This document shows, in pieces, positions 7,333 to 44,065 of a DNA stretch of 64,000 nt. Below the pieces are notes generated by a model, which made no database searches, was not told the DNA's origin, and worked only from the letters and a program-made list of their open reading frames with translations. Position numbers and translations under genes: made by a program. This DNA comes from a virus. The stretch lies in the IMG/VR virus record IMGVR_UViG_3300045988_174170; one strand, 5' to 3'. The stretch's first letter is position 1. Every line of letters begins with the position of its first letter.

Positions 7333-7417
7333 AAAGAATCAACAAAAACAAGGTATAAAACAGGCGCAACCCCGCAAAATCAGAGCCGCGCCCACCACCA
7401 ACATAGCGGCAAATAAA

Positions 7418-7437
7418 AAAGTGTGCTACAATTATAA
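7418..7437. promoter_or_regulatory. back-to-back overlapping divergent extended -10 promoters (TGCTACAAT on + / TGTTATAAT on -)
   Basis: gtgTGCTACAATtataacagta. The + strand element feeds 7478 and its reverse complement TGTTATAAT feeds 5689..7332. Confidence 0.4.
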
Positions 7438-7477
7438 CAGTACTTGGTAAACCCCTACAGATAAGGACACCCAACAA

Positions 7478-7669
7478 GTGAACACCCCAACCAACGGCAA
7501 GAACTACCTCAACGGCAAGCTCATTGAAAACCCCATCGGATACCTCTTCGGAGCGGATTATGCAGAGACGCTAGATGAAGACACTAAAGCCTACATGGAA
7601 TACCTTGTTAAGGAGTTTGATAGTTGGGACGAAGAAGCAAAGAATAGCAACACCGAAAGCGAACAGTAA
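7478..7669 (+). CDS. hypothetical protein (GTG start)
   Basis: 63-aa ORF with AAGGA 12 nt upstream. Confidence 0.45.
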   Translation: MNTPTNGKNYLNGKLIENPIGYLFGADYAETLDEDTKAYMEYLVKEFDSWDEEAKNSNTESEQ

Positions 7670-7671
7670 CA

Positions 7672-7986
7672 ATGTTTAGCCAACAGGAATATTATCCCAT
7701 CCTGGCACTAACACTAGAAACCCGTGTACGTAGACCAATGGGCGGAGGCCCACAGTTGGCACGTATGCTAGTCGTACACTTCGTAGACGCTGAGAATAAC
7801 CCCTGCTACAAAACCTATGGATACTCAGGGATGAGCCCAGAATACGACCTGCCCACTGTAAAAATTGTCTTCAAAAACACCGACACCCCCTACCTTGTTA
7901 AGGCGGGGAATAATGGGCGTGACGAAATCCAGCTAAGCAAAGACCATTGGAAAAATATCCATACCGGTAACGTAAGCCTAATCTAA
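7672..7986 (+). CDS. hypothetical protein
   Basis: 104-aa ORF tightly packed after the previous gene. Confidence 0.5.
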   Translation: MFSQQEYYPILALTLETRVRRPMGGGPQLARMLVVHFVDAENNPCYKTYGYSGMSPEYDLPTVKIVFKNTDTPYLVKAGNNGRDEIQLSKDHWKNIHTGNVSLI

Positions 7987-8017
7987 CCCACCCCTAAGAC
8001 AGAAAGATATTCAAAAC

Positions 8018-8284
8018 ATGAATAACTACACCGTCATCAAAATCCAGTTTGAAACCATCGTAACCGAAAGAACCACATCATACAATACACAGAGCGCAAC
8101 CCGCGTACATTACCTGCAAACCGACGGTACAGTAGCGTCAGTTCGGTACGACCCCGGCGAGCTGAAGATGGTTCTTGACCAGCACGAAGGTAAACTACCC
8201 TACCTCACCGACGATAATGTACTACACGTACACCCGGAACACCTGAAAGACATTCAGACTTCCGTCATCAGGTACTTTAAGTAA
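8018..8284 (+). CDS. hypothetical protein
   Basis: 88-aa ORF, followed by a 17-bp perfect GC hairpin at 8311..8361. Confidence 0.5.
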   Translation: MNNYTVIKIQFETIVTERTTSYNTQSATRVHYLQTDGTVASVRYDPGELKMVLDQHEGKLPYLTDDNVLHVHPEHLKDIQTSVIRYFK

Positions 8285-8394
8285 ACCTGCAAACCAAACC
8301 CGCTAAGAAACGCCCCGGCGGGGCGGCATAAACCACCCCAAACCATGCCGCCCCGCCGGGGTGCACAAGCACTACAGAATAGGAAAACCAACCC

Positions 8395-9186
8395 ATGCTG
8401 AATAACCTTGAGCCCGGCGACATCATCATCACCGATGACCACTTCTATAAAGTCACCCGCACAATGCGCACCCTACGAGGTGTCCTCACCTCAATGCACA
8501 TCCTCGGCAAGGAAGGCGCGGAACAGTATATTAATGCAGAAGGTGGGTACCCCATTGAGCTTATCGGCGGCTTTGACCACATCAAGAAGTCGGAAAATGT
8601 AGATATTGAAGAGTTGTTCGATATGGAACGCGGACGGGATGAACTCATTGAAGGATACACCAAAATTCAAACCCTACTGCCGGGAGCTTACAAGCCCGCC
8701 CAGCCGTCTAAAGCTAACAACCCCAACAGCACCTCATGGATGCTCAACCACCCCGACAAGCTGACCCTAAGCCTACACCCAGCTAAGTGTGAAGAAGAGC
8801 TGGAAAAGATAAAGAGCCTACTAGAAGAAGCGGAACGCAAGCTTCATGATGCGGCATGTGATATTCGAGAGGGGCGCAAAAAGTATGCCGCCAAATACAC
8901 GGAGGTAGCAATCGAGAACGCCACCTATCTAGAAACCGAAGAACACCGCAAGAAGTTCTGCAAAGCAATCAAAGAGGCATACCACGAAAGCTTCCCCTGG
9001 GAAAACCAGCCTTTCAACATCGCCTACCCCCGAATCTACAGCACATCATTCCCTGAAAAATTGCACGCGAAACTTCAGGAAAACGTGTACAACACACACC
9101 AGGAAATTATTAAATCACTACTAGTAATCGAATACCTCGACACCCTAGCGGAAACCCTATACGGTGAACCCAATAAAAAGGGTTAA
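8395..9186 (+). CDS. hypothetical protein with N-terminal 'PGDIIIT' motif
   Basis: 263 aa. The motif LEPGDIIITDD is shared with 16024, 32636 and 42749. RBS AGGAAAA. Confidence 0.6.
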   Translation: MLNNLEPGDIIITDDHFYKVTRTMRTLRGVLTSMHILGKEGAEQYINAEGGYPIELIGGFDHIKKSENVDIEELFDMERGRDELIEGYTKIQTLLPGAYKPAQPSKANNPNSTSWMLNHPDKLTLSLHPAKCEEELEKIKSLLEEAERKLHDAACDIREGRKKYAAKYTEVAIENATYLETEEHRKKFCKAIKEAYHESFPWENQPFNIAYPRIYSTSFPEKLHAKLQENVYNTHQEIIKSLLVIEYLDTLAETLYGEPNKKG

Positions 9187-9234
9187 ACCCTAAAACAAAT
9201 AACCCAACAGGTGCACCCCACCAAGGAGTAAAAC

Positions 9235-9786
9235 ATGACAAAACCCAAGAGCCTATCTTACGGAAACATCAACAACCGCTACATCTTTCACAACTCGTTT
9301 GATACCCCCAGTAGGTACTACTGGACAGCCGATAAAATCGCTAAGCGCGAGAATGAACTCCGCAAAGCAGGCTGGGTAGCACTCCCAGGAACCTTCACCC
9401 TAGACGACCCACAGCGAGAAATCGTTGAGGTTAAACCGGGTACTGAAACCACCAAACACCTAGTGCACCTCATCAGGTTCCTTGCGGGCAAGCACAAGAG
9501 GGAAACTGGCACCCCCTACAAAATGTACGCGCACCTCAATGTATCGGTAAACACCAAAGATGAAGACGGCATTGGTGTAGTCGAAATCAATACCACCTTC
9601 ACTAGTGACCCCGAAGGTAAACACAAGATTGGTGTATCAATGACCACCTGCCTAGATGAACCTTGGGAACTCAGTACTGAAGAATGGCTCAAGATGGACG
9701 GTAAAACCTACCCCATCGGAACCCCTATCTGGAGCGACTGGCACAAAGACATCGAAATCCTAATCAACCCCAAACAAGGTAAATAA
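9235..9786 (+). CDS. hypothetical protein, paralog family C
   Basis: 183 aa, about 55% identical by eye to 10875..11441 (GWVALPG.FTLD.PQR.IV..KPG.ET.KHL.HL..F.AGKH...TGTPY.MYAHLNV). Confidence 0.7.
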   Translation: MTKPKSLSYGNINNRYIFHNSFDTPSRYYWTADKIAKRENELRKAGWVALPGTFTLDDPQREIVEVKPGTETTKHLVHLIRFLAGKHKRETGTPYKMYAHLNVSVNTKDEDGIGVVEINTTFTSDPEGKHKIGVSMTTCLDEPWELSTEEWLKMDGKTYPIGTPIWSDWHKDIEILINPKQGK

Positions 9787-9890
9787 CCCCATAACATAAC
9801 GGCAAAGGGCGCCCCTGAACAATCAGTAAAAGGGGTGCCCTAAACGCCACACTAAACCACCAACACCAAAAACACGGAGAGTAAAACACC

Positions 9891-10790
9891 ATGCGAATCC
9901 CCCTAGCACCCCACACCCTAACCGTAGGCGAAGCCTTCATCCTACAAAACAACAACGAAAAATCCCTATACAAAGTAACCCACACCGAAGGCAACACCAT
10001 CACCGCCGAACGCAAACACACCACCAACAGTGAAACAGCACCCCAAACCATCACCGGAACCCTACTCAACGGAACCCTAACCACCACCACACCAGTACAC
10101 AACACCCGAACACCCAAAATCATCGACCTCAACACCACCAAAACCAACACCATAAAAGCCACCACCAACAAACCCGAATACACCATCATCAGCAAGAACA
10201 CCAACGAAGACATCAACATCTGGCAAACCATCGAAACAATCACACCAGACGTAACCCTAGTACAATCACAAACCACCCCCACCCAAAAACGCATACACCT
10301 AACACCCCAACTACAAAAAGAAATCAACACAAACACCACCAACCTAACCCCCACACACACATTCTACCTAAACAACAACAACACAGAATGTGTACCCCAC
10401 GACGCGGCAAAAGCCCTAAAAACCATCATCAACCACCCCCACTGGAACGCCCTAAAACAAAAAGCAGTCAAGAATAATGACTGGGAAACCACCCTAACCA
10501 CCGACTACCTAACCGACACATACTGGGAACAAATCAGCACCGACTACAGTGACGGCTACGCATGGGGAGTCTCCTACGACCTCATCATCGACTACACCAT
10601 CGACTACGCAGAAGAGCTAAAACACCTCACCAACAGCACCGACCCCCAAACCCCAAACAGCAAAAACCTAACACCCAAACAACAAAAACAACTCACCACA
10701 ATGCTGAACAACGTCATCAAAAAACTCGAACAATCCGAATGGTACGAACCCGACCCCGAAGACTACACCATCATCCCCTACATCGAATAG
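9891..10790 (+). CDS. Thr/Asn/Pro-rich low-complexity protein with structured acidic C-terminal domain
   Basis: 299 aa, GGAGAG RBS, flanked by the family-C paralogs. Its C-terminus (DWETTLTTDYLTDTYWEQISTDYSDGYAWGVSYDLIIDY) is non-repetitive. Confidence 0.5.
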   Translation: MRIPLAPHTLTVGEAFILQNNNEKSLYKVTHTEGNTITAERKHTTNSETAPQTITGTLLNGTLTTTTPVHNTRTPKIIDLNTTKTNTIKATTNKPEYTIISKNTNEDINIWQTIETITPDVTLVQSQTTPTQKRIHLTPQLQKEINTNTTNLTPTHTFYLNNNNTECVPHDAAKALKTIINHPHWNALKQKAVKNNDWETTLTTDYLTDTYWEQISTDYSDGYAWGVSYDLIIDYTIDYAEELKHLTNSTDPQTPNSKNLTPKQQKQLTTMLNNVIKKLEQSEWYEPDPEDYTIIPYIE

Positions 10791-10874
10791 TTTGCATACC
10801 CCTAGCCGGTGTGGTAACCTATACCTACAGGTGCCACACCGGTACCCCAAAACACGCAACCAAGGAAATCAAAA

Positions 10875-11441
10875 ATGAAGTCTTACGAAGATGACATCCT
10901 AAACGGGTATATGTTCTGGGATGACGATAAATGGAATTACAAGGCGAAGATGGTTACTGAAGCTGAAGGCTACCCCTGTGTGGAGCACGCTATCATGTGG
11001 GACAACAGGTTCCGCAAATCAGGCTGGGTAGCACTCCCAGGAGCCTTCACCCTAGACGAACCCCAACGAAAAATCGTCAAAGCTAAACCGGGTCAAGAAA
11101 CAGCTAAGCATCTGATGCACCTCATGGCGTTCCACGCAGGCAAGCACCAGAAAGCAACCGGCACCCCCTACAATATGTACGCGCACCTCAACGTATGGGT
11201 GAACTCCGGTGACGAAGACGACCCCCACGAAATCGGAATTGACGCAACATTTACCAACGACCCCGAAGGTAAAAACCCGGCAGGTGCTTCAATGGCAACC
11301 TACCTAGCAGGTGACTGGGGTGGGCTAACCATGAAAGAATGGCTCAAGCTAGACGGTAAAACCTACCCCGTAGGTTGCCCCATCTGGACAGACTGGGGCA
11401 ACCGAATCGAAATCCTCATCCACCCAAAACGGGGTAAGTAA
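10875..11441 (+). CDS. hypothetical protein, paralog family C
   Basis: 188 aa, paralog of 9235..9786. Confidence 0.7.
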   Translation: MKSYEDDILNGYMFWDDDKWNYKAKMVTEAEGYPCVEHAIMWDNRFRKSGWVALPGAFTLDEPQRKIVKAKPGQETAKHLMHLMAFHAGKHQKATGTPYNMYAHLNVWVNSGDEDDPHEIGIDATFTNDPEGKNPAGASMATYLAGDWGGLTMKEWLKLDGKTYPVGCPIWTDWGNRIEILIHPKRGK

Positions 11442-11455
11442 CCCCAACACAATAA

Positions 11456-11492
11456 GCCCCGGCAACCCAAACAAAACACAGGTTACCGGGGC
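11456..11492. terminator. GC hairpin terminator
   Basis: CCCCGGCAACC ... GGTTACCGGGG followed by CTTC. Confidence 0.45.
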
Positions 11493-11552
11493 TTCATGCT
11501 ACCTTTTCAATACAGAAATCGCGTATCCCGCACTAAGGAAGGAACACCCACC

Positions 11553-11777
11553 ATGAGCTTCTACCACACCAACTGTAGCTACGACCCTACCGATGCCATA
11601 GGCAACGACGACGAATGGAACCCAGGAGAACCAGACTGGCAAACCAACGAAGAAGAATGGGACTGGATAGCTTGGAGAAACAACATCGCCATGTCCGAGC
11701 CACCAGAACACGAATACGAAGACTACCCCAACAGTCCATATGAAAGCGTCTCTGTTGCACTTGAAAACAGGGAATAA
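11553..11777 (+). CDS. small acidic Trp-rich protein
   Basis: Track ORF 11496..11777. The ATG at 11553 has AAGGAAGG upstream. Confidence 0.5.
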   Translation: MSFYHTNCSYDPTDAIGNDDEWNPGEPDWQTNEEEWDWIAWRNNIAMSEPPEHEYEDYPNSPYESVSVALENRE

Positions 11778-11816
11778 GTAAACACCACCAACACCACGTC
11801 GCATATACAGCAAAAC

Positions 11817-11853
11817 CCCCGGCAACCCGCACACGCAGGAAACCGGGGGTTTA
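11817..11853. terminator. bidirectional terminator between convergent genes
   Basis: CCCCCGG-N20-CCGGGGG + TTT. Closely resembles the 11456 hairpin. Confidence 0.5.
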
Positions 11854-11904
11854 CTAACACCCAAAACACCAAACAAAACACCACACCAAACCAGACACTA
11901 AACC

Positions 11905-13422
11905 CTACAATAGGTCAGACACAACACCGGCAACATCCACCAAATCAACACCTAAGCCCGCAACCGGCGAACCCACCGGAACATCAACAACACCACCAAC
12001 AAACCCCTCGCCAACACCAGCAGAACCACCAAACAAACCAGCAGAACCACCACCACCATTCACAACACCAACCGGCGAACCATAACCCTCACTACCACCA
12101 ATAAAACCCAAACCCAAACCAGGCACAATATCAGAACCAGAACTAGAACCCGAACCAGAACCAGCAGAAATAGTACCTACAACATCACCCCAACAGGCAC
12201 GACCAACACCACCAACAACACTATCAACCCAATTACGGACAAGCCACCAACCGGCGAAACGACCCAAACCAGCAACCCTAGCCTCAACCGGCGAAACACC
12301 ACCCAAACCACCAACAGAACCAAACTCAACATCAGGCACATCAACCAATGCAACACCATCAACAGACCCAGACACACCAACCCCAACAGAACCCGCCACA
12401 TCAACAAAACCAGCAGGAGCCAAACGCGAACCAAACACCAAACCCCTATGTGTCACACCATCAACAACAACCTCAGACCCAACACCAACACCACCAGAAA
12501 CACCAACAACACCAGGAACAAAACCACCAGCACCCAAACCCGAAACACCCAAAACACCACGCCAACCAGAACCCCCACCACCAACAGACAAAACACCCAA
12601 AGAAGCCGAAGACAAACCCCAAGACACAGACAAACCACCAAAACCAGACACACCAGACACCACAGGAACACCCACCAAAGACACACCACCAGAACTACCA
12701 GAAACACCACTAGAAATACCCGAACCCACACCAACACTCAAAGGAAAACAACCCACCAAAGCATCACCAACACCACGCCAACCAGAACCCCCACCACCAA
12801 AAGGCAAAGCACCAAACCCCACAGACGAAACACTCAACCCCGAAAAATCACCAACAAAACCCTCCCACAAAGGAACACCAACACCACCAACAACAGACAA
12901 ACCACCACCAGAAACACACCCCAAAACACCACCACACTCCTCCACAAAAGACAAAGACACACCCTCAGACACAGACACCACACCACCACCAGAACACACA
13001 CCACCCACAGACACCAAAAACCCATCCCAAACACTAGAAACAGACCCGGACACACCAAAAGAATCAACAAAACCCACAGAAGCCTCATAGGGGCACTCAA
13101 ATACACTAGAGGTATAATCACCCACCCCAACACCAAAAGAACCCATAGAAGGCTCCACAGGGGGTGTAAAAGAATGACCATACCCCCACGCCTCCTCAAC
13201 ATTAGAAGCAATAAACCCCCTACCACTAACACCCCAAGCAGAAGACTGCCAACCACACTGCACAAAACCAGGCATAGTCAAACCACTAGCAGACGGGGGA
13301 TTATGACCAACAGGGGTATAAAGTACACCACCATCAGGTAGCGTATCACCTATCGGCGGGGCTGTTAGAGTGCCAGGAACCCACGTCTCAACAACACCAA
13401 TAACAGTGCTATCTACAGCCAT
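11905..13422 (-). CDS. Gly/Val/Ser-rich 505-aa protein with internal repeat GGGGSGWRGV
   Basis: Track ORF 11905..13443 (TTG). The ATG at 13422 is preceded by GGGAAAGGG. The non-repetitive N-terminal 100 aa and the terminator at its 3' end support this strand over the mirror-image + strand Thr/Asn ORF. Confidence 0.5.
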   Translation of the reverse strand: MAVDSTVIGVVETWVPGTLTAPPIGDTLPDGGVLYTPVGHNPPSASGLTMPGFVQCGWQSSAWGVSGRGFIASNVEEAWGYGHSFTPPVEPSMGSFGVGVGDYTSSVFECPYEASVGFVDSFGVSGSVSSVWDGFLVSVGGVCSGGGVVSVSEGVSLSFVEECGGVLGCVSGGGLSVVGGVGVPLWEGFVGDFSGLSVSSVGFGALPFGGGGSGWRGVGDALVGCFPLSVGVGSGISSGVSGSSGGVSLVGVPVVSGVSGFGGLSVSWGLSSASLGVLSVGGGGSGWRGVLGVSGLGAGGFVPGVVGVSGGVGVGSEVVVDGVTHRGLVFGSRLAPAGFVDVAGSVGVGVSGSVDGVALVDVPDVEFGSVGGLGGVSPVEARVAGLGRFAGWWLVRNWVDSVVGGVGRACWGDVVGTISAGSGSGSSSGSDIVPGLGLGFIGGSEGYGSPVGVVNGGGGSAGLFGGSAGVGEGFVGGVVDVPVGSPVAGLGVDLVDVAGVVSDLL

Positions 13423-13475
13423 ACTTAAAGCCCTTTCCCGCAATCACAAAAGTGTGACATAAACATAATTTTAGT

Positions 13476-14360
13476 GTGTTATATCTTCTACAAAATTCCG
13501 AGCGGAACACAACCCCCAGAACAGCAATCAAAAAAAATACCCATAGCAAAGGGCTAATAAAAGACGACCCCCAGCACAAAACCCGAATAAAAATAACAAA
13601 AATTTTCCAACACGCCACACCCACCAAAAAACACAAACCACCAAACCCAAAAAACAAGCGCCCATCACACCACCATGATAAACGCCACAACAAACGGGTA
13701 ACACGCAACACAACAGTACACAGCACACATACAGAACACAGAGAAGAACATACACAGCCACACAGGATACATACATACAGGAGAGCGCACACAGGCAGAC
13801 ACATATAGATACATGCAGACAATATACACAGACACACAATAGACACATAAGAGTAACAGGCACACAAGCAACAGACCCAAGGAGAACAACACACAAGACA
13901 CACACAACAGACACATACAGGGGAACAACACATAAGACACAGAACAAAGAAGACCACAAACACAGACACAATAGACACACAAGAGACAAAACACAGGAAC
14001 ACAAGAACACAACAAGGGCACAGGGGAACAGAGGGAACAAAAGCTAGACAGAACACACCAACAACACAGCTAGACAGAAACAACACAACAGACACACAAT
14101 AGACACACAGAGAACAGCTAGACAGAACACACGGGGGGTAACACACGGAACAGAGTAAAGGTAAAGAAGGCTAGACAGGGCACGGGGTAATAAGGGGTAG
14201 AAGAAGGGCGGGTAGAAGGGGAAGGAAAGGGGGGCGGGAAAGAGGAAGCGAAGGGTGGAAGGTAGAGCGGGGTGGTAGTAGGTGGGGTGGTGGTGTTTAT
14301 TCTCTGTTTTGTTTTGTTTTTTGGGGTGGTTTTTCTTGTTTTTGGCTGTTTTTTGGGGGT
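13476..14360. repeat. non-coding low-complexity tract graded CA-rich to GA-rich to GT-rich, with iteron-like direct repeats
   Basis: Three copies of CACAATAGACACA(T/C)A(A/G)GAG at about 13836, 13967 and 14096 with ~130-bp spacing. Four copies of GCTAGACAG at about 14043, 14069, 14117 and 14170. Purine-only GA stretch 14160..14280, GT-only stretch 14280..14420. Confidence 0.7.
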
Positions 14361-14376
14361 GTTTTTTGGTATAATG

Positions 14377-14386
14377 GTTTTGGGTG
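14377..14386 (+). promoter_or_regulatory. extended -10 promoter TGGTATAATG
   Basis: Consensus TGnTATAAT, rightward. Confidence 0.4.
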
Positions 14387-14557
14387 GTTTTTTTGGTATC
14401 TAGCCCTGTGTGGAAAGTAGCCTTTTGCCTTGTCAGGGCGTTATGCACTGTGGTGCATTTTCTTCATTTTTGGGGTCTATAATCAACCTGTAGGGGTTGT
14501 TTTTGGGTTGGTGGGGCACCTTACTCCTGTTTAGGGTATGTGGGTGGGGTTATTTTA

Positions 14558-14565
14558 GGTATAAT
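14558..14565 (+). promoter_or_regulatory. extended -10 promoter (a)GGTATAAT(g) upstream of 14607
   Basis: Second copy of GGTATAATG, 40 nt before the start codon. Confidence 0.4.
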
Positions 14566-14606
14566 GTGGGTTATGTACTGTTCAATTGACGGCTGGAGGC
14601 GTATCT

Positions 14607-14816
14607 GTGTTTGCTACGACTGGTGAGATTCTTTACGTGTTTTTCAGTGGCGCGTTGTTCACTTGTTTTGGGGCTTGGTTCTTTTGGAGGGCGGGTGATA
14701 AGAAGCTTATTTCGCGTGATGGGGTGCATATGGCGTGCTTGTTTTTAGTTCCGGGTGTTCTGTCTATTGTGGTGGCATTGCCAGTTGTTCTGAGGTTAAT
14801 GTTTGGTTGGTCATAA
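14607..14816 (+). CDS. small membrane protein
   Basis: Track ORF 14586 (TTG). The GTG at 14607 has GGAGG 7 nt upstream. Two TM segments. Confidence 0.4.
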   Translation: MFATTGEILYVFFSGALFTCFGAWFFWRAGDKKLISRDGVHMACLFLVPGVLSIVVALPVVLRLMFGWS

Positions 14817-15098
14817 TAAGTAGGAACGCGAGCGCCTAACTGTGAAGGAAGAAGTACCCATCGGGGCGGCTACAGGAACCACCGAAAGCATCGAAGCCGA
14901 AGGCAGTAAAGTACCTGAACCTACCGAAGTAACCGGTAGTATTCTTAGCGACGGAGAACGCGCTGAACTCAAAGAGGCTGAAGAGGCACCGGGTGCACTC
15001 AATGACTAGCCATATAGTTGTTACTGTCGTGTAACGCCTAGACGCAGTTCAGGTCACCCCCCCGCGAGCGCTTACTAGTTGCTTGTACGTGTATTGAA

Positions 15099-15141
15099 CA
15101 CCCCCTAGTGGTTATCCGCCGCTAGGGGGGGGTCTTTTTTT
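15099..15141 (+). terminator. rho-independent terminator
   Basis: CCCCCTAGTGGTTATCCGCCGCTAGGGGGGGG followed by TCTTTTTTT. Confidence 0.6.
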
Positions 15142-15250
15142 GGGGGGGGTGTTGCTTGTGTCTATATGTGCTGTCTGTGTCGCCTGTGGTAGGATGGGGG
15201 TATCTTATTGTTAGTATTGCGGGGGTGTACCCTGAGAGGATTTGATGTTT

Positions 15251-15424
15251 ATGATTGAGCCGTATGTGTCGTTGGTTTGGTGGGCTGTTGGTTGCCTTGT
15301 GGTTGCGGTGGCGTTTGAGGTGGTGGCTTTTAGGTGTGCGTCTGTTGGGCGGCGTTCTTGGTGTGGTTGGTTCTTCAGGCTGGGTTACAGTTTCGGTGGT
15401 TGAGCATAAGCGCCCTGGTAGGGA
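15251..15424 (+). CDS. 57-aa membrane peptide
   Basis: The ATG has GAGAGGA 10 nt upstream. The same 'GGA(A/G)GGATTTGnTnTTT-ATG' context recurs at 16024. Below the track size cut-off. Confidence 0.3.
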
Positions 15425-15656
15425 TAGTGCCTCTGAGATTCGTACTGCTTACACGTGGAGCGAGGTGCGCGGCAATGAGACTGTCGCTAAGACTACTACT
15501 GTTGAGCAGGATGACGTTTCGGTAGTTGAAGACGTTGCGGCGGGTGGCACGCCGTGGGTTGAGTACATTCCCATGTATCATCTTGTGCCTGCTGGCATTT
15601 TTGATGGTTCGCACGCTGACCCGGTTCAGGGTAAGCTCTGTGTTCGGGGGGCGTGA
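15255..15656 (+). CDS. hypothetical protein (alternative frame, TTG start; true start unclear)
   Basis: The C-terminal 85 aa are non-repetitive (VEHKRPGRDSASEIRTAYTWSEVRGNETVAK...), but there is no convincing RBS. Confidence 0.25.
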   Translation: MSRMCRWFGGLLVALWLRWRLRWWLLGVRLLGGVLGVVGSSGWVTVSVVEHKRPGRDSASEIRTAYTWSEVRGNETVAKTTTVEQDDVSVVEDVAAGGTPWVEYIPMYHLVPAGIFDGSHADPVQGKLCVRGA

Positions 15657-16023
15657 TACTGACTGTAAGGTGAACGCATTGCGGGCGAACATGAAGTATG
15701 TGCTACATGTCCCGGCGAGCGCCTAATAGTCAATGAACTATCACGCTAGAGGTGGCGTCAAGTTCCGGCGGGTAAGCGCCTCTAGTCGCACCCTAGTTGC
15801 TCAGCGGTAGCCCGTAGTGCCCACGCTCAGCTTTTGACTTAATGTGGGTACTACGGGCTTTTCTGTGCCCTCCTGTAACCTTTCAAGGATTCGGGTATTG
15901 TGGTTACCCGTGTCCGGCGCGTACTGTACATGGCGGCTTGTCTATGGTAGGATAGGTGTATCTTATATTGTTGTTACCCCCTGTTGGTTAGGGGGTGTGT
16001 TCTTTTGGAAGGATTTGTTTTTC

Positions 16024-17127
16024 ATGTCTGTTGTGTCTGTTTGCCCTGGTGATGTTGTGTCTACTGGTGTGGGTGTTCTGCATGTGGGGTCTGTTATTGT
16101 GGAGCGTTCGCGTGAGGGTGAGTCTTTTGCTGTGTCTGGTGTTACTGGTGATGGTGTGGTACGTGCGGGTGTTCCTGTCACTGATGATGTGGTTCCGTTG
16201 GCTGTTGATGCGTCTGATGCTGAGGCGTTGGTGTGGTTTGACCGTGAGCGTTATTTGAAGCGTTTGAGTGAGGCTGTGTTTTGTCCGGGTGATGGGTTTG
16301 CGGCTTTGGGTAGGTGTATGTCTGAGTGGGTGGATTTGTCTTTGTCTGACCGTGAATCGGTTGATGCTGTTCTTGAGCGTCTGGTCAAGGTTGATGCTGG
16401 TCTTGTTTGGGATTACCAGTGGGTTGTTAGGAAGCGTGCTGAGTGCTTGGAGGCGTTTGAGGATTTTCATGCGGGTTGGTTGAAGTATCAGAGTAAGCCT
16501 TGGAGTGAGCCGGTTTTGGGTGAATGTCGTAAGATTGATGCCCATAAGGTTGTTGGTGGTGTTGAGCTTAGGGTTGGTGGTATCTATCAGTTCCGGCGTG
16601 CTGATGCGCCTGTAGAGGGCGGGTATGAGTACTTTAAGGTTGTTAGTAGTAACTATAACCCTGAGATTATTCTTTATGGTGCGTCTACTAGGGTGAATGG
16701 TTGTTCGGGTGTTATTATTAGCAGTAATGGGGGTTTTGTTTCTTACGCTAACCTGCGGGCTAAAGTGGGTGATGAGCTGTTTTGGATTGATGCGGATACT
16801 GTGAAGCTTCTACCTATTGGCTCTCTTAATGATATTGACTCTTACCTTGAGTTGAGCGAGTATGCGGACGTTTCTCTTTCTGAGGCATTGCAGGGGATTT
16901 TCCTTGACATGTTCAGTGCCGATGAAGGTAAGCCTAAGTGCCTACCTGTTCGTGAGGAACTTGATGATGACCGCTACTGTTGGGATGATGATTATGCTAA
17001 GTGTCGTGGTGTGCTGATGTCTGCTACTGCTGACCTGCTGTTCGATATTGAGAAGAGCCTTGGGCATGTCCGGTGGGTGCGTGACCAGCTGAAAGTCTTC
17101 TACCGCGAACTAGGGTTCACCTTCTAG
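16024..17127 (+). CDS. hypothetical protein with N-terminal 'PGDVVST' motif
   Basis: Track ORF 15844. M61 (ATG 16024) has GGAAGGA 11 nt upstream. Motif CPGDVVSTG. Confidence 0.55.
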   Translation: MSVVSVCPGDVVSTGVGVLHVGSVIVERSREGESFAVSGVTGDGVVRAGVPVTDDVVPLAVDASDAEALVWFDRERYLKRLSEAVFCPGDGFAALGRCMSEWVDLSLSDRESVDAVLERLVKVDAGLVWDYQWVVRKRAECLEAFEDFHAGWLKYQSKPWSEPVLGECRKIDAHKVVGGVELRVGGIYQFRRADAPVEGGYEYFKVVSSNYNPEIILYGASTRVNGCSGVIISSNGGFVSYANLRAKVGDELFWIDADTVKLLPIGSLNDIDSYLELSEYADVSLSEALQGIFLDMFSADEGKPKCLPVREELDDDRYCWDDDYAKCRGVLMSATADLLFDIEKSLGHVRWVRDQLKVFYRELGFTF

Positions 17128-20124: not shown

Positions 20125-20565
20125 ATGTCACCCCGCACTGTTGATTCTGTGGTGAAGGATTTCCTAAAAATTGAATGGGATGCCACTCTAGTAAGCATGA
20201 CCGCTTACCCGCCTGGTGACTATGTAGAGCAACCTGTACGGGATAACATGGCTAGGTCACGCAATAAGGCAGAGGCTCTCGCTAAGGTTGCCGAACAGTC
20301 CGCTAAGTATCTTGAGATGGTTGCTAATGGGTCGAGTGGTGACCTTGAGGATTTGCTGATTTTTGCGAGCGCGCAGGTTTCTGTACTTCGTGAACAAATG
20401 GCTAGTATTTCTGACTTGGGGTACTACTCTGAGCATGTTGCAAGCAAGGCGGCACGCAAGACACTATCTGAAGTTGCTGAAAGGTACGCGCCTTATAGGA
20501 AGAATTGGGCTGAGCGGCGTGAGAGTAAGGGGCTTATTTTCAAGCAAAACCCTCATGTGAGCTAA
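20125..20565 (+). CDS. hypothetical protein
   Basis: 146 aa. Its stop codon overlaps the TGTGA of the next cassette. Confidence 0.65.
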   Translation: MSPRTVDSVVKDFLKIEWDATLVSMTAYPPGDYVEQPVRDNMARSRNKAEALAKVAEQSAKYLEMVANGSSGDLEDLLIFASAQVSVLREQMASISDLGYYSEHVASKAARKTLSEVAERYAPYRKNWAERRESKGLIFKQNPHVS

Positions 20566-20610
20566 TTCACACGGTTTTAACTTGCATGGGGGTTATTGTT
20601 GTGCCATAAT
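20556..20610 (+). promoter_or_regulatory. cassette promoter C1
   Basis: TGTGAgctaatTCACA, TTGCAT, 17-nt spacer, TGcCATAAT. Confidence 0.6.
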
Positions 20611-20677
20611 AGAAATGTAGCAAGGGGATAACTCCTAAAGCTACTTCCACTATCTACCTTATGAAAGGGTTTCCATC

Positions 20678-20923
20678 ATGGCACGTTTTAAGATTGCGAA
20701 TCACGAGCTGGCTATCGAAGCTATCAAGGAAGGCATGAAGCTTTACCCCAGCCTGATTTGCCGTGACCACTACAGCAAGCAGGGTCGCTTTACCGTATGG
20801 TGCGGCGAAGAACGTGGCACTGTTGATGTGAAGGTACTTGCAGATTACGAAAACTTCCAGGATGTTTTCGATACCCCCAAGGTCAATTGGGAAGAGGGTT
20901 ACATCACCATTAACAAGAAGTAG
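20678..20923 (+). CDS. hypothetical protein, paralog family B
   Basis: 81 aa, paralog of 36885..37202 (..WCGE.R....V......NWEEGY.T.). Confidence 0.75.
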   Translation: MARFKIANHELAIEAIKEGMKLYPSLICRDHYSKQGRFTVWCGEERGTVDVKVLADYENFQDVFDTPKVNWEEGYITINKK

Positions 20924-21008
20924 TACCTAGTGCCCCGTATCTAACCTAGCCGGGTTGGATACGGGGTTTTCTGTATCCCTATTGGTTGATGACGCATCTC
21001 AAATATAA

Positions 21009-21063
21009 TGTGACCTAATTCACACGTTTTTAACTTGCGCACCCTTAATGGTTGTGTCATAAT
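21009..21063 (+). promoter_or_regulatory. cassette promoter C2 (leader deleted)
   Basis: Perfect palindrome TGTGAcctaatTCACA, TTGCGC, TGtCATAAT. The ATG lies only 5 nt after the -10. Confidence 0.55.
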
Positions 21064-21068
21064 AGTTC

Positions 21069-21377
21069 ATGACTAACTACCGCATCTTTAACCTGGTCGA
21101 GGGCGCTACCCCCACCCTGGAAAGCATGGCAAAGGCACTGGTTGCCGCTGTAGAAAACGAGTGGTTCCGTGATAACACTCTCTGCGTAGATGATGTAAAG
21201 GTCGAAAACGACGCGCTTCTCTTCGAGATTGACGGCTCGCACTTCAAGGCTGTAATTTCCGGTCGAGAAATCCACCTGTACGCCCGCAATGACGAAAGCG
21301 AGCTGGGTACCGACGGCGCAACCCAGTTCATTAAGACCATGAACCGCATCGGTTGCACTAAGGAATACATCTACTAA
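21069..21377 (+). CDS. hypothetical protein, probably translated from a leaderless mRNA
   Basis: ATG at 21069 lies 5 nt downstream of the -10 (CATAATagttcATG). No SD is possible. 102 aa. Confidence 0.6.
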   Translation: MTNYRIFNLVEGATPTLESMAKALVAAVENEWFRDNTLCVDDVKVENDALLFEIDGSHFKAVISGREIHLYARNDESELGTDGATQFIKTMNRIGCTKEYIY

Positions 21378-22323: not shown

Positions 22324-22423
22324 GGGCTTTACCTAGACCACGAACCGCTCGATAGATTGATAGAGCCCTAGAGACGCTAAAGCCTGTAGATAAAAGATAG
22401 TGGAACACGCCCCATAACCCCTA

Positions 22424-22478
22424 TGTGAGCTATTTCACGTGATTCTGGCTTGCATAGGGGTTAGGGGTGTGTCATAAT
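22424..22478 (+). promoter_or_regulatory. cassette promoter C3
   Basis: TGTGAgctattTCACg, TTGCAT, 17-nt spacer, TGtCATAAT. Confidence 0.6.
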
Positions 22479-23989: not shown

Positions 23990-24044
23990 TGTGACCTATT
24001 TCACATGATTTAGATTTGCAAAGGGGTTAGGGGTGTGTCATAAT
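23990..24044 (+). promoter_or_regulatory. cassette promoter C4
   Basis: TGTGAcctattTCACA, TTGCAA, TGtCATAAT. Confidence 0.6.
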
Positions 24045-24527: not shown

Positions 24528-24582
24528 TGTGACACAATTCATATAGTTTAGACTTGCACACCCGGCTAGGGTGTGGCATAAT
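24528..24582 (+). promoter_or_regulatory. cassette promoter C5
   Basis: TGTGAcacaatTCAtA, TTGCAC, TGgCATAAT. Confidence 0.55.
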
Positions 24583-24650
24583 AGTTATATAAGCGATAGA
24601 GAAAACCTCTAGAACTAGTTCGTTATCTACCTACCGAAAGGCTGGATACT

Positions 24651-24989
24651 ATGTCTACCGTTATTACCTACTCCGAGTTCCTTCTCACCTTCGACATTCC
24701 CGAAGAGCTTAGCGCAAAGGTGAAGGTATCCGATTTAACCCCCGAGGTTGTTTCCTTCGTTTTGTCCGGTGGTCGTGGTTCCGGTCGTGCCGTGCTTACC
24801 GTAAAGCTCGACGGTGAAGAGTACAAGCTGAACACCCGCCTGTACCCCGAGGAGTATGATGCCCTTGATTCTATTACCAATGATGGTATCAACTGTGATA
24901 CCAACAAGATTGTAGGCATTGAATGGGGTTCCTACTGTGCTTACGTTGAGTTTGGAGAGATTCGCCTCGCGGTCGGTAAGGCGCGCTAA
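24651..24989 (+). CDS. hypothetical protein
   Basis: 112 aa, cassette leader. Confidence 0.7.
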   Translation: MSTVITYSEFLLTFDIPEELSAKVKVSDLTPEVVSFVLSGGRGSGRAVLTVKLDGEEYKLNTRLYPEEYDALDSITNDGINCDTNKIVGIEWGSYCAYVEFGEIRLAVGKAR

Positions 24990-25051: not shown

Positions 25052-25106
25052 TGTGCTCTATTTCACATGATTTTGACTTGCATGGGGGTTAGGGGTGTGG
25101 CATAAT
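25052..25106 (+). promoter_or_regulatory. cassette promoter C6
   Basis: TGTGCtctattTCACA, TTGACT, TGgCATAAT. Confidence 0.55.
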
Positions 25107-26255: not shown

Positions 26256-26310
26256 TGTGAGCTATTTCGCATGATTTGGACTTGCACACCCCTAAAAGGT
26301 GTGCCATAAT
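26256..26310 (+). promoter_or_regulatory. cassette promoter C7
   Basis: TGTGAgctattTCgCA, TTGCAC, TGcCATAAT. Confidence 0.55.
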
Positions 26311-27471: not shown

Positions 27472-27526
27472 TGTGAGCTAATTCACATGGTTTCAAGTTG
27501 CATACGCCGTTAGAGCGTGTCATAAT
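27472..27526 (+). promoter_or_regulatory. cassette promoter C8
   Basis: Perfect TGTGAgctaatTCACA, TTGCAT, TGtCATAAT. Confidence 0.6.
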
Positions 27527-29245: not shown

Positions 29246-29285
29246 AGCGCCCATATACCCCTAATAGGGATACCCATAACCCCTT

Positions 29286-29340
29286 TGTGACTCAATTCAC
29301 ACGTTTTTGAGTTGCAAGGGGGTTATAAGTGTGTCATAAT
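29286..29340 (+). promoter_or_regulatory. cassette promoter C9
   Basis: Perfect TGTGActcaatTCACA, TTGCAA, TGtCATAAT. Confidence 0.6.
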
Positions 29341-30918: not shown

Positions 30919-31590
30919 ATGCAACGAAATATTGACTGGCTAACTAATGTACTAGACCATGACATTAAAGAGCTCAAGGAAACGCTAGAAACCATACTAG
31001 CCCTTCGCGCCGAGGAAGAAAGCTACCATGTTGTGACTAATCAGCACGCCGCCGGTAAGCGTGAAGAACAGGGCGCACTTTTGGAGCGCGTCAAGAATCT
31101 AGCTGAGTACACCCATAAGGTATGTGTACGCCGCAATGAAGTATGTGCCGCCGAAATTGCGAGGGTGACTCATAATGTGACTAGTGAGCCGTCTATCGCG
31201 GGCGTGGAGTGGGTGCCTGTCAGTTTCCATATGGAGTTTCAGTCACCCGAAGATGCGCACCGCATCTTTCACCTGTGGGCAAATATGCGCACCTTCACCC
31301 TGGAAGATTTTACGCACCCGGAGACTGTGAACACAGCTTCACGTCTCTATTGTGCTACCTTTAAGATTCCGGCTATCAATGACGGATTCACGCAGGCACC
31401 GGAGCGGCTGTTCTACGGCTGGACTACATGCCAGGCATCAGGTGGCTCCCTCGAATGGCTTAATGGCGCTAACGGCGGCATGGTTGATGGTGTGCCATGC
31501 ATTATCTCTGACATTTTCCGTCGCGAAGGTAAAGGAAATGATACCGACATGGTTGTAGATGCGCTAGTTCCTACACACCCCAAATACTAA
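30919..31590 (+). CDS. hypothetical protein
   Basis: 223 aa, GAAAGGGG RBS with 13-nt spacing. Confidence 0.55.
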   Translation: MQRNIDWLTNVLDHDIKELKETLETILALRAEEESYHVVTNQHAAGKREEQGALLERVKNLAEYTHKVCVRRNEVCAAEIARVTHNVTSEPSIAGVEWVPVSFHMEFQSPEDAHRIFHLWANMRTFTLEDFTHPETVNTASRLYCATFKIPAINDGFTQAPERLFYGWTTCQASGGSLEWLNGANGGMVDGVPCIISDIFRREGKGNDTDMVVDALVPTHPKY

Positions 31591-31613
31591 GGGAATATAC
31601 CCAATAACCCCTA

Positions 31614-31668
31614 TGTGAGCTATTTCATATGATTCTGGCTTGCATAGGGGTTATTGGTGTGTCATAAT
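31614..31668 (+). promoter_or_regulatory. cassette promoter C10
   Basis: TGTGAgctattTCAtA, TTGCAT, TGtCATAAT. Confidence 0.6.
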
Positions 31669-32056: not shown

Positions 32057-32111
32057 TGTGACTAGGTTCACATGAATCTGGCTTGCATACCCGGCTAGGG
32101 TGTGCCATAAT
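32057..32111 (+). promoter_or_regulatory. cassette promoter C11
   Basis: Perfect TGTGActaggtTCACA, TTGCAT, TGcCATAAT. Confidence 0.6.
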
Positions 32112-33921: not shown

Positions 33922-33976
33922 TGTGACCTATTTCACGCCATTTCAGTTTGCACACCTCTAAAAGGTGTGTCATAAT
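33922..33976 (+). promoter_or_regulatory. cassette promoter C12
   Basis: TGTGAcctattTCACg, TTGCAC, TGtCATAAT. Confidence 0.55.
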
Positions 33977-36761: not shown

Positions 36762-36817
36762 TGTGACCTATTTCATATTATTTTGACTTGCAACCCCATG
36801 CTCAGGTGTGCCATAAT
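36762..36817 (+). promoter_or_regulatory. cassette promoter C13
   Basis: TGTGAcctattTCAtA, TTGCAA, 18-nt spacer, TGcCATAAT. Confidence 0.55.
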
Positions 36818-38917: not shown

Positions 38918-38972
38918 TGTGACTAGGTTCACGCGGTTTTGACTTGTATATCCTATTTGAGTGTGCCATAAT
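38918..38972 (+). promoter_or_regulatory. cassette promoter C14
   Basis: TGTGActaggtTCACg, TTGTAT, TGcCATAAT. Confidence 0.55.
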
Positions 38973-39977: not shown

Positions 39978-40003
39978 CCCCCTTCCTGCACCCCTAACCC
40001 CTT

Positions 40004-40058
40004 TGTGACTCAATTCACACGTCTTCGAGTTGCAAAGGGGTTAGGGGTGTGTCATAAT
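40004..40058 (+). promoter_or_regulatory. cassette promoter C15
   Basis: Perfect TGTGActcaatTCACA, TTGCAA, TGtCATAAT. Confidence 0.6.
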
Positions 40059-43987: not shown

Positions 43988-44010
43988 AGCACTATACCAT
44001 CTAACCCTTA

Positions 44011-44065
44011 TGTGAGCTATTTCACGTGAATCTAGTTTGCATAAGGGTTAGGGGTGTGTCATAAT
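44011..44065 (+). promoter_or_regulatory. cassette promoter C16
   Basis: TGTGAgctattTCACg, TTGCAT, TGtCATAAT. Confidence 0.6.

Follow-up and report, generated by a model that had tools for sequence, protein, structure and literature searches.

A CRP/GlxR-like palindrome in fixed register within the repeated promoter cassettes of a large phage-like genome family

The window analysed here, a stretch of 64,000 nucleotides from IMG/VR virus record IMGVR_UViG_3300045988_174170, carries an array of 24 co-oriented promoter cassettes (20556-63640) with about 70 genes, mostly ORFans, downstream of them; every cassette element located below lies on the + strand. The cassette reads, in order, a hairpin, a palindromic box of the form TGTGA-N6-TCACA, a T-tract at -42 to -40, TTGCA, 17 nt, TGnCATAATnG, a leader, GAAAGG and ATG, and the leader in the array cassettes is some 62 nt long and includes a GGGG/CCCC hairpin. 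An Rfam search returned a tRNA as its sole match. In the cassette from which this analysis takes its start, the box is perfect (TGTGACCTAATTCACA, 21009-21024) and spans positions -61 to -46 of the promoter at 21035, whose -35 hexamer TTGCGC (21035-21040; family consensus TTGCAt) is followed by the extended -10 element TGTCATAAT (TGn + CATAAT, 21055-21063). Upstream of the box is a stem-loop with a T-run that resembles an intrinsic terminator (20932-20975), an example of what we call the separate-hairpin layout. The predicted +1 falls at 21069/21070, where it coincides with the ATG of the ORF at 21069-21377, so that this copy looks leaderless.

Promoters matching TTGCA-N17-TGnCATAATnG occur 24 times on the + strand of the window and not at all on the - strand, and 20 of the 24 have a box with at most one mismatch in the same register, starting 26 nt before the TTG of the -35 element TTGCAx, which is followed by 17 nt and TGnCATAAT. 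Perfect TGTGA-N6-TCACA matches number seven, all on the + strand, against 0.03 expected from shuffled sequence. Besides the copy at 21009 they lie at 20556-20571 (promoter 20582), 23990-24005 (promoter 24016), 27472-27487 (promoter 27498), 29286-29301 (promoter 29312), 32057-32072 (promoter 32083) and 40004-40019 (promoter 40030). A first-pass annotation of this DNA had listed five perfect palindromes, all of which are real and part of this enrichment, and had missed those at 20556 and 23990; in the former, the N6 spacer contains the TAA stop of the ORF at 20125-20565. Its statement that most other copies differ at one position agrees with the 13 promoter-linked boxes that carry a single mismatch, at 22424-22439 (TCACG; promoter 22450), 24528-24543 (TCATA; 24554), 25052-25067 (TGTGC; 25078), 26256-26271 (TCGCA; 26282), 31614-31629 (TCATA; 31640), 33922-33937 (33948), 36762-36777 (36788, with an 18-nt spacer), 38918-38933 (38944), 44011-44026 (44037), 45419-45434 (45445), 51027-51042 (51053), 51609-51624 (51635) and 63572-63587 (AGTGA; 63598). 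That the box is present in every cassette, as had also been claimed, is true of these 20 in register. It does not extend to the remaining four: the boxes of promoters 56431 (CGTGA-N6-TCATA, 56406-56421) and 62446 (TGTGACCTATTCCCCA, 62418-62433) are degenerate and shifted by 1 and 2 nt respectively, promoter 47434 keeps the right half-site alone, and at promoter 23015 the box is absent. One more site with a single mismatch, at 60593, is within coding sequence and looks accidental. The dyad centre of the box is 18.5 nt upstream of the start of the -35 element, the 26 nt previously assigned to the half-site centre being the distance from the box start. With the predicted +1 set 7 nt after the -10 element the centre falls at -53.5, which bears out the earlier estimate of about 53 bp upstream of the start.

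The same cassette is present in related metagenome contigs of 215-306 kb, with the promoters co-oriented within each contig; full contigs of the family, of 250-306 kb, include ERZ1674288.1, ERZ1674051.1 and QWBZ01000001.1. A census of the window and 121 related loci, anchored solely on the -10 sequence GTGNCATAAT and keeping promoters with TTG at -35, yielded 297 unique promoters, of which 101, 131 and 46 have boxes with 0, 1 and 2 mismatches (278/297 at two or fewer). Box positions T-61, G-60, T-59 and G-58, together with T-50, C-49 and A-48, hold 1.4-1.7 bits, the level of the -35 hexamer, whereas the columns flanking the box have drifted to 0.1-0.7 bits. The box is therefore under a constraint of its own and does not owe its sequence merely to duplication of the cassette. 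The consensus of the box, TGTGA-sy-TA-wT-TCACA, is the same as the GlxR/CRP consensus TGTGANNTANNTCACA (PMC4254451) with the central TA included (T-54 in 68% and A-53 in 77% of promoters), and A-62 and T-45 prolong the dyad. The symmetry is imperfect: T-51 is conserved at 89% without a mirror partner, the right half-site weakens towards its outside (C-47 and A-46 both at 71%), and position -56, at which symmetry would demand A, is occupied by C or G.

The two half-sites do not covary. Paired cells amount to 90.4%, against 90.3% in shuffles (231 of 500 shuffles were as high), double changes between the half-sites show no excess over shuffles, and the box stem by itself is weak, at -2.4 to -4.8 kcal/mol (-2.4 as DNA). 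Conservation of both half-sites in the absence of covariation suggests that a dimeric protein reads the site, and not that it folds as a hairpin, and from these patterns the box looks like a sequence-specific operator and resembles a genuine protein-binding site. On the same grounds we rejected a stand-alone hairpin or weak terminator as its main role; the terminator scan picked the box once, as CATGTGA...TCACATG followed by ATTTT. The resemblance to a famous motif is what prompted scrutiny of the box, and some selection bias comes with it.

A stable hairpin accompanies essentially every cassette, overlapping the box and the -35 element in about 38% of copies (z -5.8) and lying just upstream in the others (z -3.7). 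Overlapping hairpins are 20-26 bp long and their inner stem pairs TGTGA(G/C)C with (G)GC-TTGCA. Their outer arms covary and show CG-to-GC flips, with 67.6% of cells paired against 62.7±0.6 in shuffles (0/500 as high) and 25-49% in slid registers. Folded as + strand RNA they are very stable, with energies between -36 and -44 kcal/mol and z of -8 to -9. They begin as close as 9-12 nt past the upstream stop codon, and stop codon and box are closer together here than in the other class (median 39 vs 67 nt, p = 0.005). Canonical terminators with a T-run show no enrichment over shuffles (24 vs 19.9). The hairpin at 31599-31660 (RNA -39.1 kcal/mol, z -8.2), which starts 9 nt past the stop of the ORF at 30919-31590, illustrates the layout: its 5′ arm consists of AATAACCCCTA and the box sequence TGTGAGC, and its 3′ arm of GGC, the TTGCA of the -35 element and the spacer sequence TAGGGGTTATT. 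Others cover the box and -35 element of promoter 40030 (39988-40050; RNA -44.2 kcal/mol, z -9.2; starting about 11 nt past the stop of the ORF at 39582-39977), promoter 22450 (22405-22472) and promoter 44037 (43996-44055), whose arms have CCCTTA/TAAGGG in place of CCCCTA/TAGGGG, a compensated change. A different palindrome, CACACCC-GGCTA-GGGTGTG, lies within the spacer of the promoter at 24554 (24557-24575, positions -32 to -14); such spacer-internal palindromes are found in 30/194 promoters, never together with the long hairpin. The cassettes also concentrate the breaks in synteny, since they (taken as -80 to +110 of the -35 element) hold 41.7% of the 259 alignment ends against 10.4% expected, and several synteny blocks shared with related genomes begin at 27471.

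The identification of the box with the canonical CRP/GlxR/Vfr motif is sound, in that the 5+5 core, the 6-bp spacer and the central TA all match. Its position is another matter. E. coli CRP acts from -61.5, -71.5 and so on at class I promoters and from -41.5 at class II promoters; when it is moved 5 bp out of phase activation is about 1-fold, and its cooperativity with RNA polymerase collapses within a few bp (PMC6301791). Reckoned from the predicted +1, a centre at -53.5 misses the class I position (-61.5) by 7-8 bp and the class II position by 12 bp, and is incompatible with canonical activation from either, by a rule that was set in E. coli. There is a precedent for another distance at an extended -10 promoter in the CRP of M. 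tuberculosis, which activates whiB1 from -58.5 (PMC2844151). A second promoter that would bring the box to -61.5 or -41.5 was considered and rejected, as a TATATA-like string after the -10 element is limited to the AGTTATATAA leader variant and missing from the AGAAGTGTAG variant, and the stretch from -24 to -19 holds nothing -10-like. A sigma-54 reading of TGGC-TTGCA fails on spacing, and a Frpo-like single-strand promoter fails because the hairpin excludes the -10 element and so offers sigma no non-template strand. The core promoter is itself near-consensus (TTGCA, 17 nt, extended -10 TGnCATAAT), and no activator should be needed. A phmmer search with E. coli CRP against 5,083 ORFs from the window and the 121 loci, about 1 Mb of family DNA corresponding to the cassette-bearing ~40% of the genomes, found no CRP homologue (best E = 1.2), and none of the 97 window ORFs matched the Crp or stand-alone HTH-regulator families of Pfam. 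The proposal that the array is wired to a CRP-type regulator is thus sustained as far as the motif, its fixed register and its consensus go, but the position at -53.5, the strong core promoter and the lack of a CRP gene in that ~1 Mb count against it.

With regard to the host, there are weak hints of Actinomycetota. The ribosome-binding site GAAAGG precedes 40/69 genes, which argues against an enteric host and makes classic E. coli cAMP-CRP an unlikely partner. The TTGCA / TGnCATAATnG promoter form resembles the functional consensus of C. glutamicum promoters (PMC3917453). One family member encodes a RepSA-type initiator, adjoining an FtsK/SpoIIIE-like gene, whose plasmid relatives are only actinobacterial. 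Actinomycete CRP proteins bind a motif of the TGTGA-N6-TCACA type. Searches for relatives gave little further guidance: comparison of 24 kb with GenBank phages by megablast produced no match, and tblastn with three proteins produced distant matches only. Three leads were set aside, namely flotillin homologues, which belong to unrelated megaphage-like contigs of 27% GC, Hyphomicrobiales MAGs, with two single matches or about the number expected by chance, and a UvrD-like query, the matches of which were taxonomically diffuse.

Several explanations of the box dispense with a regulator altogether. It could be primarily structural, serving as a terminator or 3′-end stabiliser, an RNase III-type site or an attC-like folded recombination site, with no read-out of the duplex. 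Pairing of the left half of the box with the -35 element in about 38% of promoters, covariation of the outer arms, the very stable + strand RNA hairpins close behind stop codons with a shorter stop-to-box gap, and the presence of synteny breaks in cassettes are all in keeping with such a role, as is the fact that TCATA and TCACG, the most frequent variants of the right half-site, retain G:U pairing with TGTGA on the + strand. Many copies also hold CCTAAC/GTTAGG in their arms, recalling the R′′/R′ boxes of attC. Integron attC sites have R′′/R′ cores RYYYAAC / GTTRRRY, conserve the structure of an imperfect inverted repeat over its sequence and come with an integrase; here the attC-like inverted repeat is limited to 38% of cassettes, and the sampled DNA showed no integrase or tyrosine recombinase. 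We consider a purely structural role improbable, because structure-only elements preserve pairing and not sequence, whilst the box does the opposite: its half-sites do not covary, its own stem is marginal, and promoters with a separate upstream hairpin (~60%) conserve it just as well. There is similarly little to recommend the idea that no extra factor is involved, the box, T-51/T-50 and the T-tract forming an unusual UP element read by alpha-CTD or a region of intrinsic curvature. The box does occupy the zone of the distal UP subsite at -61 to -46, its centre is A/T-rich (A-57, T-54, A-53, W-52, T-51, T-50), the T runs at -51/-50 and -42 to -40 are one helical turn apart, and the PeSL (promoter-early stem-loop) cassettes of T4-type phages are A/T-rich at the same place (PMC2839356). 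Nevertheless, dyad symmetry is foreign to UP elements, the box region departs from the A/T-rich -38 to -59 UP consensus, and conservation is at its highest at positions that include G-60, G-58 and C-49 (1.5-1.7 bits), which A/T minor-groove contact does not explain; the first-pass annotation's fallback of an UP-like element founders on these G and C positions. Finally, the cassettes are clearly paralogous repeats, and the box might be a functionless inheritance from one recently amplified copy. This we regard as very improbable given that flanks and box have diverged so differently in 297 copies from genomes 74-98% identical, and that the genes between cassettes are unrelated ORFans.

A different kind of alternative keeps the operator and changes its ligand. 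The box may be bound by a phage-encoded dimeric regulator, not necessarily related to CRP, that shuts off the early promoters or boosts them by feedback, the identity with the CRP core being coincidence or mimicry; we regard this as possible, though rather unlikely. Phage temporal control often consists of one phage protein acting on many conserved copies of a site, and P1 C1, phi29 p4 and P2 Ogr/P4 Delta act in a similar manner on dispersed phage promoters, activators of the Ogr/Delta type working from sites near -55. The asymmetric conservation of T-51 exceeds what CRP requires, and extra CACA/TGTG palindromes occupy the spacer between -35 and -10 in 15% of promoters. In one diverged promoter lineage the palindrome TTAGA-N6-TCTAG takes the position of the box, which suggests related operator-regulator pairs; it precedes, at 7 loci, a highly conserved ORF for a basic, Cys-rich protein of 94 aa that has no Pfam match and whose PHROGs matches are all of unknown function. 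This lineage fits phage-encoded paralogous regulators more easily than a single host protein and so argues against a host CRP. Conversely, a phage regulator would leave to coincidence an exact match in all 10 core bases, the spacing of 6 bp and also the central TA; no candidate DNA-binding protein turned up, the 97 window ORFs showing no HTH or Crp match to Pfam, and early promoters must initially work without phage products.

The reading that we favour, tentatively and as something short of probable, is that the box is the operator of a dimeric helix-turn-helix regulator of CRP/FNR specificity within an early-promoter cassette, the likeliest ligand being a GlxR/Crp-like protein of the host. 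A global CRP-type protein of the host is preferred since the promoters must fire before any phage proteins exist and since the consensus match is exact. The box is built, at a predicted -53.5, into the upstream region of a strong early promoter of the sigma-70/sigma-A extended -10 type, and this promoter is one half of a composite cassette of putative terminator hairpin and early promoter. Repeated dozens of times in one orientation, the cassette doubles as a junction for gene shuffling in the ORFan-rich early region of an uncultured phage-like genome family of ~250-306 kb. A dimer bound at this place would introduce a bend upstream of the promoter and could contact alpha-CTD or region 4 of sigma, modulating a promoter that is already strong, most likely by boosting it, rather than acting as an on/off switch. 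The motif with its register and its conservation without covariation, the make-up of the cassette, its spread in the family and the clustering of synteny breaks in it are observed here; we infer that a protein binds the box, that it belongs to the CRP family and is host-encoded, and in which direction it acts. It is conceivable, if doubtful, that a phage family with genomes of about 300 kb has placed a host cAMP-receptor-type operator on essentially all of its 60+ early promoters, gating more than 100 kb of ORFan genes by host metabolism, with the left half-site and the -35 element dual-coded as the stem of an upstream terminator in a third of cassettes.

If a host CRP-type protein does bind, a virulent-looking giant phage would couple its early and accessory programme to a second-messenger regulator of its host, and the family would offer some 300 natural operator variants at an unusual distance from the promoter. 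Should the ligand instead be a phage protein, the box would point to the regulator in overall charge of the early genes in a jumbo-phage family not yet characterised. Either way, the PeSL idea, of mobile terminator-promoter modules that shuffle ORFans, would reach beyond the T4-type phages, and the compact interleaving of terminator, operator and promoter may be of use as a synthetic part.

Set beside known systems, the box is closest in sequence to the operators of CRP, GlxR and Vfr, with which it shares the core, the 6-bp spacer, the central TA, the flanking A/T extension of the dyad and a better conservation of inner than of outer half-site positions. It differs in its centre, which in those operators lies at -41.5 or -61.5 (+10.5n), the nearest documented case that we found being the -58.5 of M. 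tuberculosis CRP. It differs too in being joined to a near-consensus extended -10 promoter, in the conservation of T-51 without a dyad partner, and in its occurrence at dozens of promoters of one mobile genome as opposed to a scattered host regulon. UP elements and the upstream A-tracts of T4 early promoters are alike in their position between -40 and -60, their phased T runs and their association with very strong early promoters, but the box is dyad-symmetric and has G and C as its best-conserved bases. The sites of the P2 Ogr/P4 Delta activators, which act via the alpha subunit, are found on late promoters as a dyad TGT-N12-ACA centred near -55. The box resembles them as a TGT...ACA dyad in the mid -50s that is repeated across one temporal class of a phage. 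It reads TGT-N10-ACA, however, and whereas P2 late promoters have no good -35 element and depend on the activator, the -35, TG and -10 elements are all present here; no protein of the Ogr/Delta family was detected in the sampled family DNA.

In architecture the nearest relatives are the PeSLs of T4-type phages (Arbiol et al. 2010, PMC2839356; Comeau et al. 2014, PMC4122927), in which a stem-loop is combined with an early promoter that has an A/T-rich region at the position of the box. The genome is not T4-like thus far, in that T4 core genes did not turn up in the parts sampled, which lay outside the structural genes. Both systems join a stem-loop with G-tract/C-tract stems to a strong sigma-70-like early promoter, repeat this unit in ORFan-rich hyperplastic regions (here in one orientation), and use it as the junction at which related genomes show insertions and replacements. 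They part company upstream of the promoter, where the A/T-rich UP region of the PeSLs gives way here to a CRP-like palindrome, A/T runs being confined to T-51/T-50 and T-42 to T-40. The hairpin, which adjoins the promoter in PeSLs, is interleaved with it in 38% of the present cassettes, and the array of cassettes runs through at least 128 kb.

The flagged box (21009–21024) is one of seven perfect copies of TGTGA-N6-TCACA in the 64-kb window, all on the plus strand, where shuffled sequence would yield 0.03; a further 13 promoter-linked copies carry one mismatch. A search anchored on the downstream promoter, TTGxxx-N(13–15)-TGnCATAAT, rather than on the box found 24 promoters on the plus strand and none on the minus strand, and a box with at most one mismatch starts exactly 26 nt 5′ of the TTG in 20 of them. 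The first-pass annotation placed the palindrome in every cassette, which is a slight overstatement: the promoters at 56431 and 62446 have a degenerate box offset by 1–2 nt, that at 47434 retains the right half-site alone and that at 23015 has no box. Its box coordinates were correct, although its list of perfect copies overlooked those at 20556 and 23990. With the −10 hexamer set as −12 to −7, the box extends from −61 to −46 and the dyad centre falls at −53.5, in agreement with the spacing of about 53 bp originally proposed. At the box 20556–20571 gene and operator overlap, the TAA stop codon (20563–20565) of ORF 20125–20565 lying inside the N6 spacer. The flagged cassette leads into ORF 21069–21377 (+), which is conserved in several related genomes and appears to be leaderless, with its ATG 5 nt past the −10 and no Shine-Dalgarno sequence.

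A wider promoter set was drawn from the window plus 121 related loci with GTGNCATAAT as the sole anchor, which made selection independent of the box. Of the 325 unique promoters, 297 have TTG at the −35, and among these the box has no mismatch in 101, one in 131, two in 46 and three or more in 19. Column information is 1.4, 1.7, 1.7, 1.5 and 1.1 bits for T−61 G−60 T−59 G−58 A−57, 1.4, 1.7, 1.7 and 1.6 bits for T−51 T−50 C−49 A−48, 0.9 and 0.8 bits for C−47 A−46, and 0.7 and 1.1 bits for T−54 A−53; the TTT at −42 to −40 reaches 1.0–1.6 bits, and both flanks of the box inside the repeat have 0.1–0.7 bits. Since the box columns stand well above the flanking columns, the box is maintained by selection and not just inherited with the repeat. 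The half-sites do not covary: among 111 non-redundant copies, 90.4% of cells are paired against 90.3% with shuffled partners (231 of 500 shuffles as high), and there are no double changes outside one diverged lineage. Conservation of sequence without covariation looks like the pattern expected of an operator read by a protein, and a sequence-specific protein of some kind probably reads the box. By itself the box folds only weakly (−2.4 kcal/mol as DNA), and a purely structural role is less likely, as is direct contact between the box and RNA polymerase.

The repeat unit is a composite of roughly 170 nt that comprises, from 5′ to 3′, a stable hairpin, the box, a T-tract, TTGCA (the −35), a 17-nt spacer, TGnCATAATnG and a leader of about 62 nt with a GGGG/CCCC stem-loop, followed by GAAAGG, about 9 nt and ATG. 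In most cassettes the conserved leader (for example 20617–20680 and 24589–24653) contains, between +1 and the ATG, AGTTATATAAGC or AGAAGTGTAGC, a GGGG-N-CCCC stem-loop, TCCACTATCTACCTACC and GAAAGG. A tRNA-Glu(UUC) gene (63794–63867, +) follows the last cassette promoter, 63598, about 160 nt beyond its predicted transcription start.

The hairpin occurs in two layouts, overlapping and separate. In the overlapping layout, seen in 73 of 194 non-redundant promoters, −72 to −62 is the reverse complement of spacer positions −30 to −20, and the stem continues through TGTGA(G/C)C, paired with (G)GC-TTGCA, which includes the next promoter's −35 (TTGCA), by way of two invariant G:T wobbles (plus strand), to give a hairpin of 20–26 bp whose loop encloses the right half-site. 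The pairing is register-specific (1180 Watson-Crick cells versus 376–798 in slid registers) and the arms covary, including flips from CCCC/GGGG to GGGG/CCCC; by formal count 67.6% of cells are paired versus 62.7 ± 0.6 in shuffles (0/500) and 25–49% in slid registers, with a covariation score of 0.218 versus 0.172 (0/500). As plus-strand RNA, the overlapping hairpins, which in the window include 22405–22472, 29276–29326, 31599–31660, 39988–40050, 43996–44055 and 51017–51067, reach −36 to −44 kcal/mol (z −8 to −9). In the separate layout a structured segment lies directly upstream (−130 to −63; mean z −3.7 versus −1.0 in the overlapping class) and the promoter region is unstructured (z −1.4 versus −5.8). 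The upstream stop codon is nearer in the overlapping class (median gap 39 versus 67 nt; p = 0.005), and the three best window hairpins begin just 9–12 nt past it. We infer that the hairpin is a 3′-end structure of the preceding transcription unit—terminator, attenuator or stabiliser. The array shows no excess of canonical T-run terminators; actinobacteria commonly terminate transcription at hairpins that lack a U-tail. A third variant, in 30 of the 194 promoters and mutually exclusive with the long hairpin, has the palindrome CACACCC-N5-GGGTGTG within the spacer (in the window, CACACC(C)-N5–7-(G)GGTGTG at 24557–24575, 26285–26303, 32086–32104 and 33951–33969); its 3′ arm is the TGTG of the extended −10, and it is possibly a second operator.

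The genome family is uncharacterised. Megablast with 24 kb of the window found no DNA-level relative among GenBank phages, and tblastn with three proteins gave remote matches only. Public metagenome contigs hold at least 117 stretches with box and promoter; among the matches listed, many are on contigs of 215–306 kb and one is an IMG/VR viral contig. Related loci match parts of the window at 74–98% identity. The 306-kb contig ERZ1674288.1 has 39 promoter copies, all co-oriented, spread over at least 128 kb, and on seven further large contigs the promoters likewise share one orientation. Sampled genes include thymidylate synthase, DHFR, DnaG-type primase, UvrD-like helicase, RNA ligase, polynucleotide kinase, Ro60/TROVE protein, PspA, flotillin and TnpB-like genes, the remainder being overwhelmingly ORFans. 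The label 'jumbo phage' rests on the IMG/VR listing, gene content and genome size, virion genes falling outside the sample.

Three observations point to an actinomycete host without proving it. GAAAGG precedes the start codon in 40 of 69 window genes, including genes without a cassette; most bacterial 16S rRNAs end in a CCUUUC tail, to which it is complementary, but those of enteric and related gamma-proteobacteria end in CCUCCUUA, to which it is not, and a host with E. coli-type cAMP-CRP is therefore unlikely. The family promoters, of the form TTGCA / TGnCATAATnG, are similar to the Corynebacterium glutamicum functional consensus, TTG(A/C)CA / TGnTATAATnG (PMC3917453). For the host phylum, the best indication so far comes from locus L050, a family member (90–96% identity to other members from nt 4735 on) in which the segment 1536–4885 (−) contains an FtsK/SpoIIIE-like gene adjoining a RepSA-type replication initiator, whose plasmid relatives are actinobacterial in 20 of 20 cases (Streptomyces 18, Kutzneria 1, Nonomuraea 1).

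Actinomycetes are a group in which the global regulators GlxR/Crp bind exactly this motif, and the leading candidate for the ligand, an assignment that we make tentatively, is a CRP/GlxR-type regulator of the host. The first-pass annotation called the box the canonical motif of CRP/GlxR/Vfr-family regulators, and the 5+5 core, 6-bp spacing, central TA and flanking A/T all reproduce the CRP/GlxR consensus, TGTGANNTANNTCACA (PMC4254451). Also in favour of such a protein, early promoters must rely on host proteins alone, about 1 Mb of family DNA yielded no CRP homologue, and the 97 window ORFs gave no match to Crp or stand-alone HTH-regulator Pfam families. Counting against a classic CRP site are the near-consensus core promoter, the conserved T−51 that has no dyad partner, and the centre at −53.5, which is neither class I nor class II; cooperativity of E. 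coli CRP is about 760-fold at −61.5, about 4-fold 2 bp off and about 1-fold 5 bp off (PMC6301791). This distance rule is not universal, however, because M. tuberculosis CRP, bound at −58.5 on the extended −10 promoter of whiB1, activates that gene at a step that follows formation of the open complex (PMC2844151).

A regulator encoded by the phage itself ranks second and is rather doubtful, with several features in its favour. One diverged promoter keeps the family −10 and has the palindrome TTAGA-N6-TCTAG at the position of the box, two positions being altered symmetrically; in seven loci (L004, L010, L013, L020, L032, L038 and L080; e.g. L010:249–700) it stands in front of a highly conserved ORF of 94 aa, basic and Cys-rich (MSRTRKRR...YRCEYCRNWHLTS), which has no Pfam match and PHROGs matches solely of unassigned function (phrog_3424). 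Some spacers hold extra CACA/TGTG palindromes, and together with the variant palindrome this is the pattern expected if the phage encoded a set of regulators whose operators are related. Both P2 Ogr and P4 Delta, moreover, activate from sites in the mid −50s. The original proposal of a coupling between the array and host cAMP or carbon status is best treated as a hypothesis.

Several further features of the window were noted. Strand composition is extreme over 5700–17100: between about 5.7 and 14.0 kb the plus strand is rich in A+C (GC skew to −0.5, AT skew to +0.7), and between 14.0 and about 17 kb it is rich in G+T. These are two divergent blocks whose apparent coding strand is G/T-rich, giving G/V/S/L/C-rich ORFs such as 11905–13443 (−), 13409–14146 (−) and 15844–17127 (+), and the pattern resembles a strand-specific bias, C>T together with A>G, that diverges from about 14.0–14.4 kb. 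Within it, the paralogous ORFs 9235–9786 and 10875–11441 (+) have normal composition and share a 297-nt repeat (76% identity). The non-array part encodes a PilT/VirB11-type secretion ATPase (3732–5288, +; Pfam T2SSE, E = 1e-32) and an ORF with a weak DotD match, genes not usually seen in a phage; in L050 the FtsK/SpoIIIE-like and RepSA-like genes lie on the equivalent side of the array. The SPFH/flotillin gene (54746–56314, +) has homologues of about 64% identity on unrelated megaphage-like contigs of 27% GC, where they adjoin anaerobic ribonucleotide reductase and NAMPT genes, which suggests gene exchange among very large phages.

The cassettes are shuffling junctions. Of 259 ends of alignments between the window and its relatives, 41.7% fall within −80 to +110 of a −35, where length predicts 10.4%; they are densest at the box and around the −10/+1, and block starts at 27471 and 21067/21068 recur across several genomes. 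The promoter early stem-loop cassettes (PeSLs) of T4-type phages likewise join strong sigma-70-like early promoters to an adjacent G-tract/C-tract stem-loop, occur mainly among ORFans and bring about modular exchange (PMC2839356, PMC4122927), a role that the concentration of alignment ends in the family cassettes matches. They differ in the segment between stem-loop and −35, which is A/T-rich in PeSLs whereas the family cassette has the CRP-like box. The reading that best fits the box is a protein operator that makes up the upstream part of a PeSL-like terminator-promoter cassette, and the finding combines two known kinds of element, the CRP-type operator and the PeSL cassette, in a new variant.
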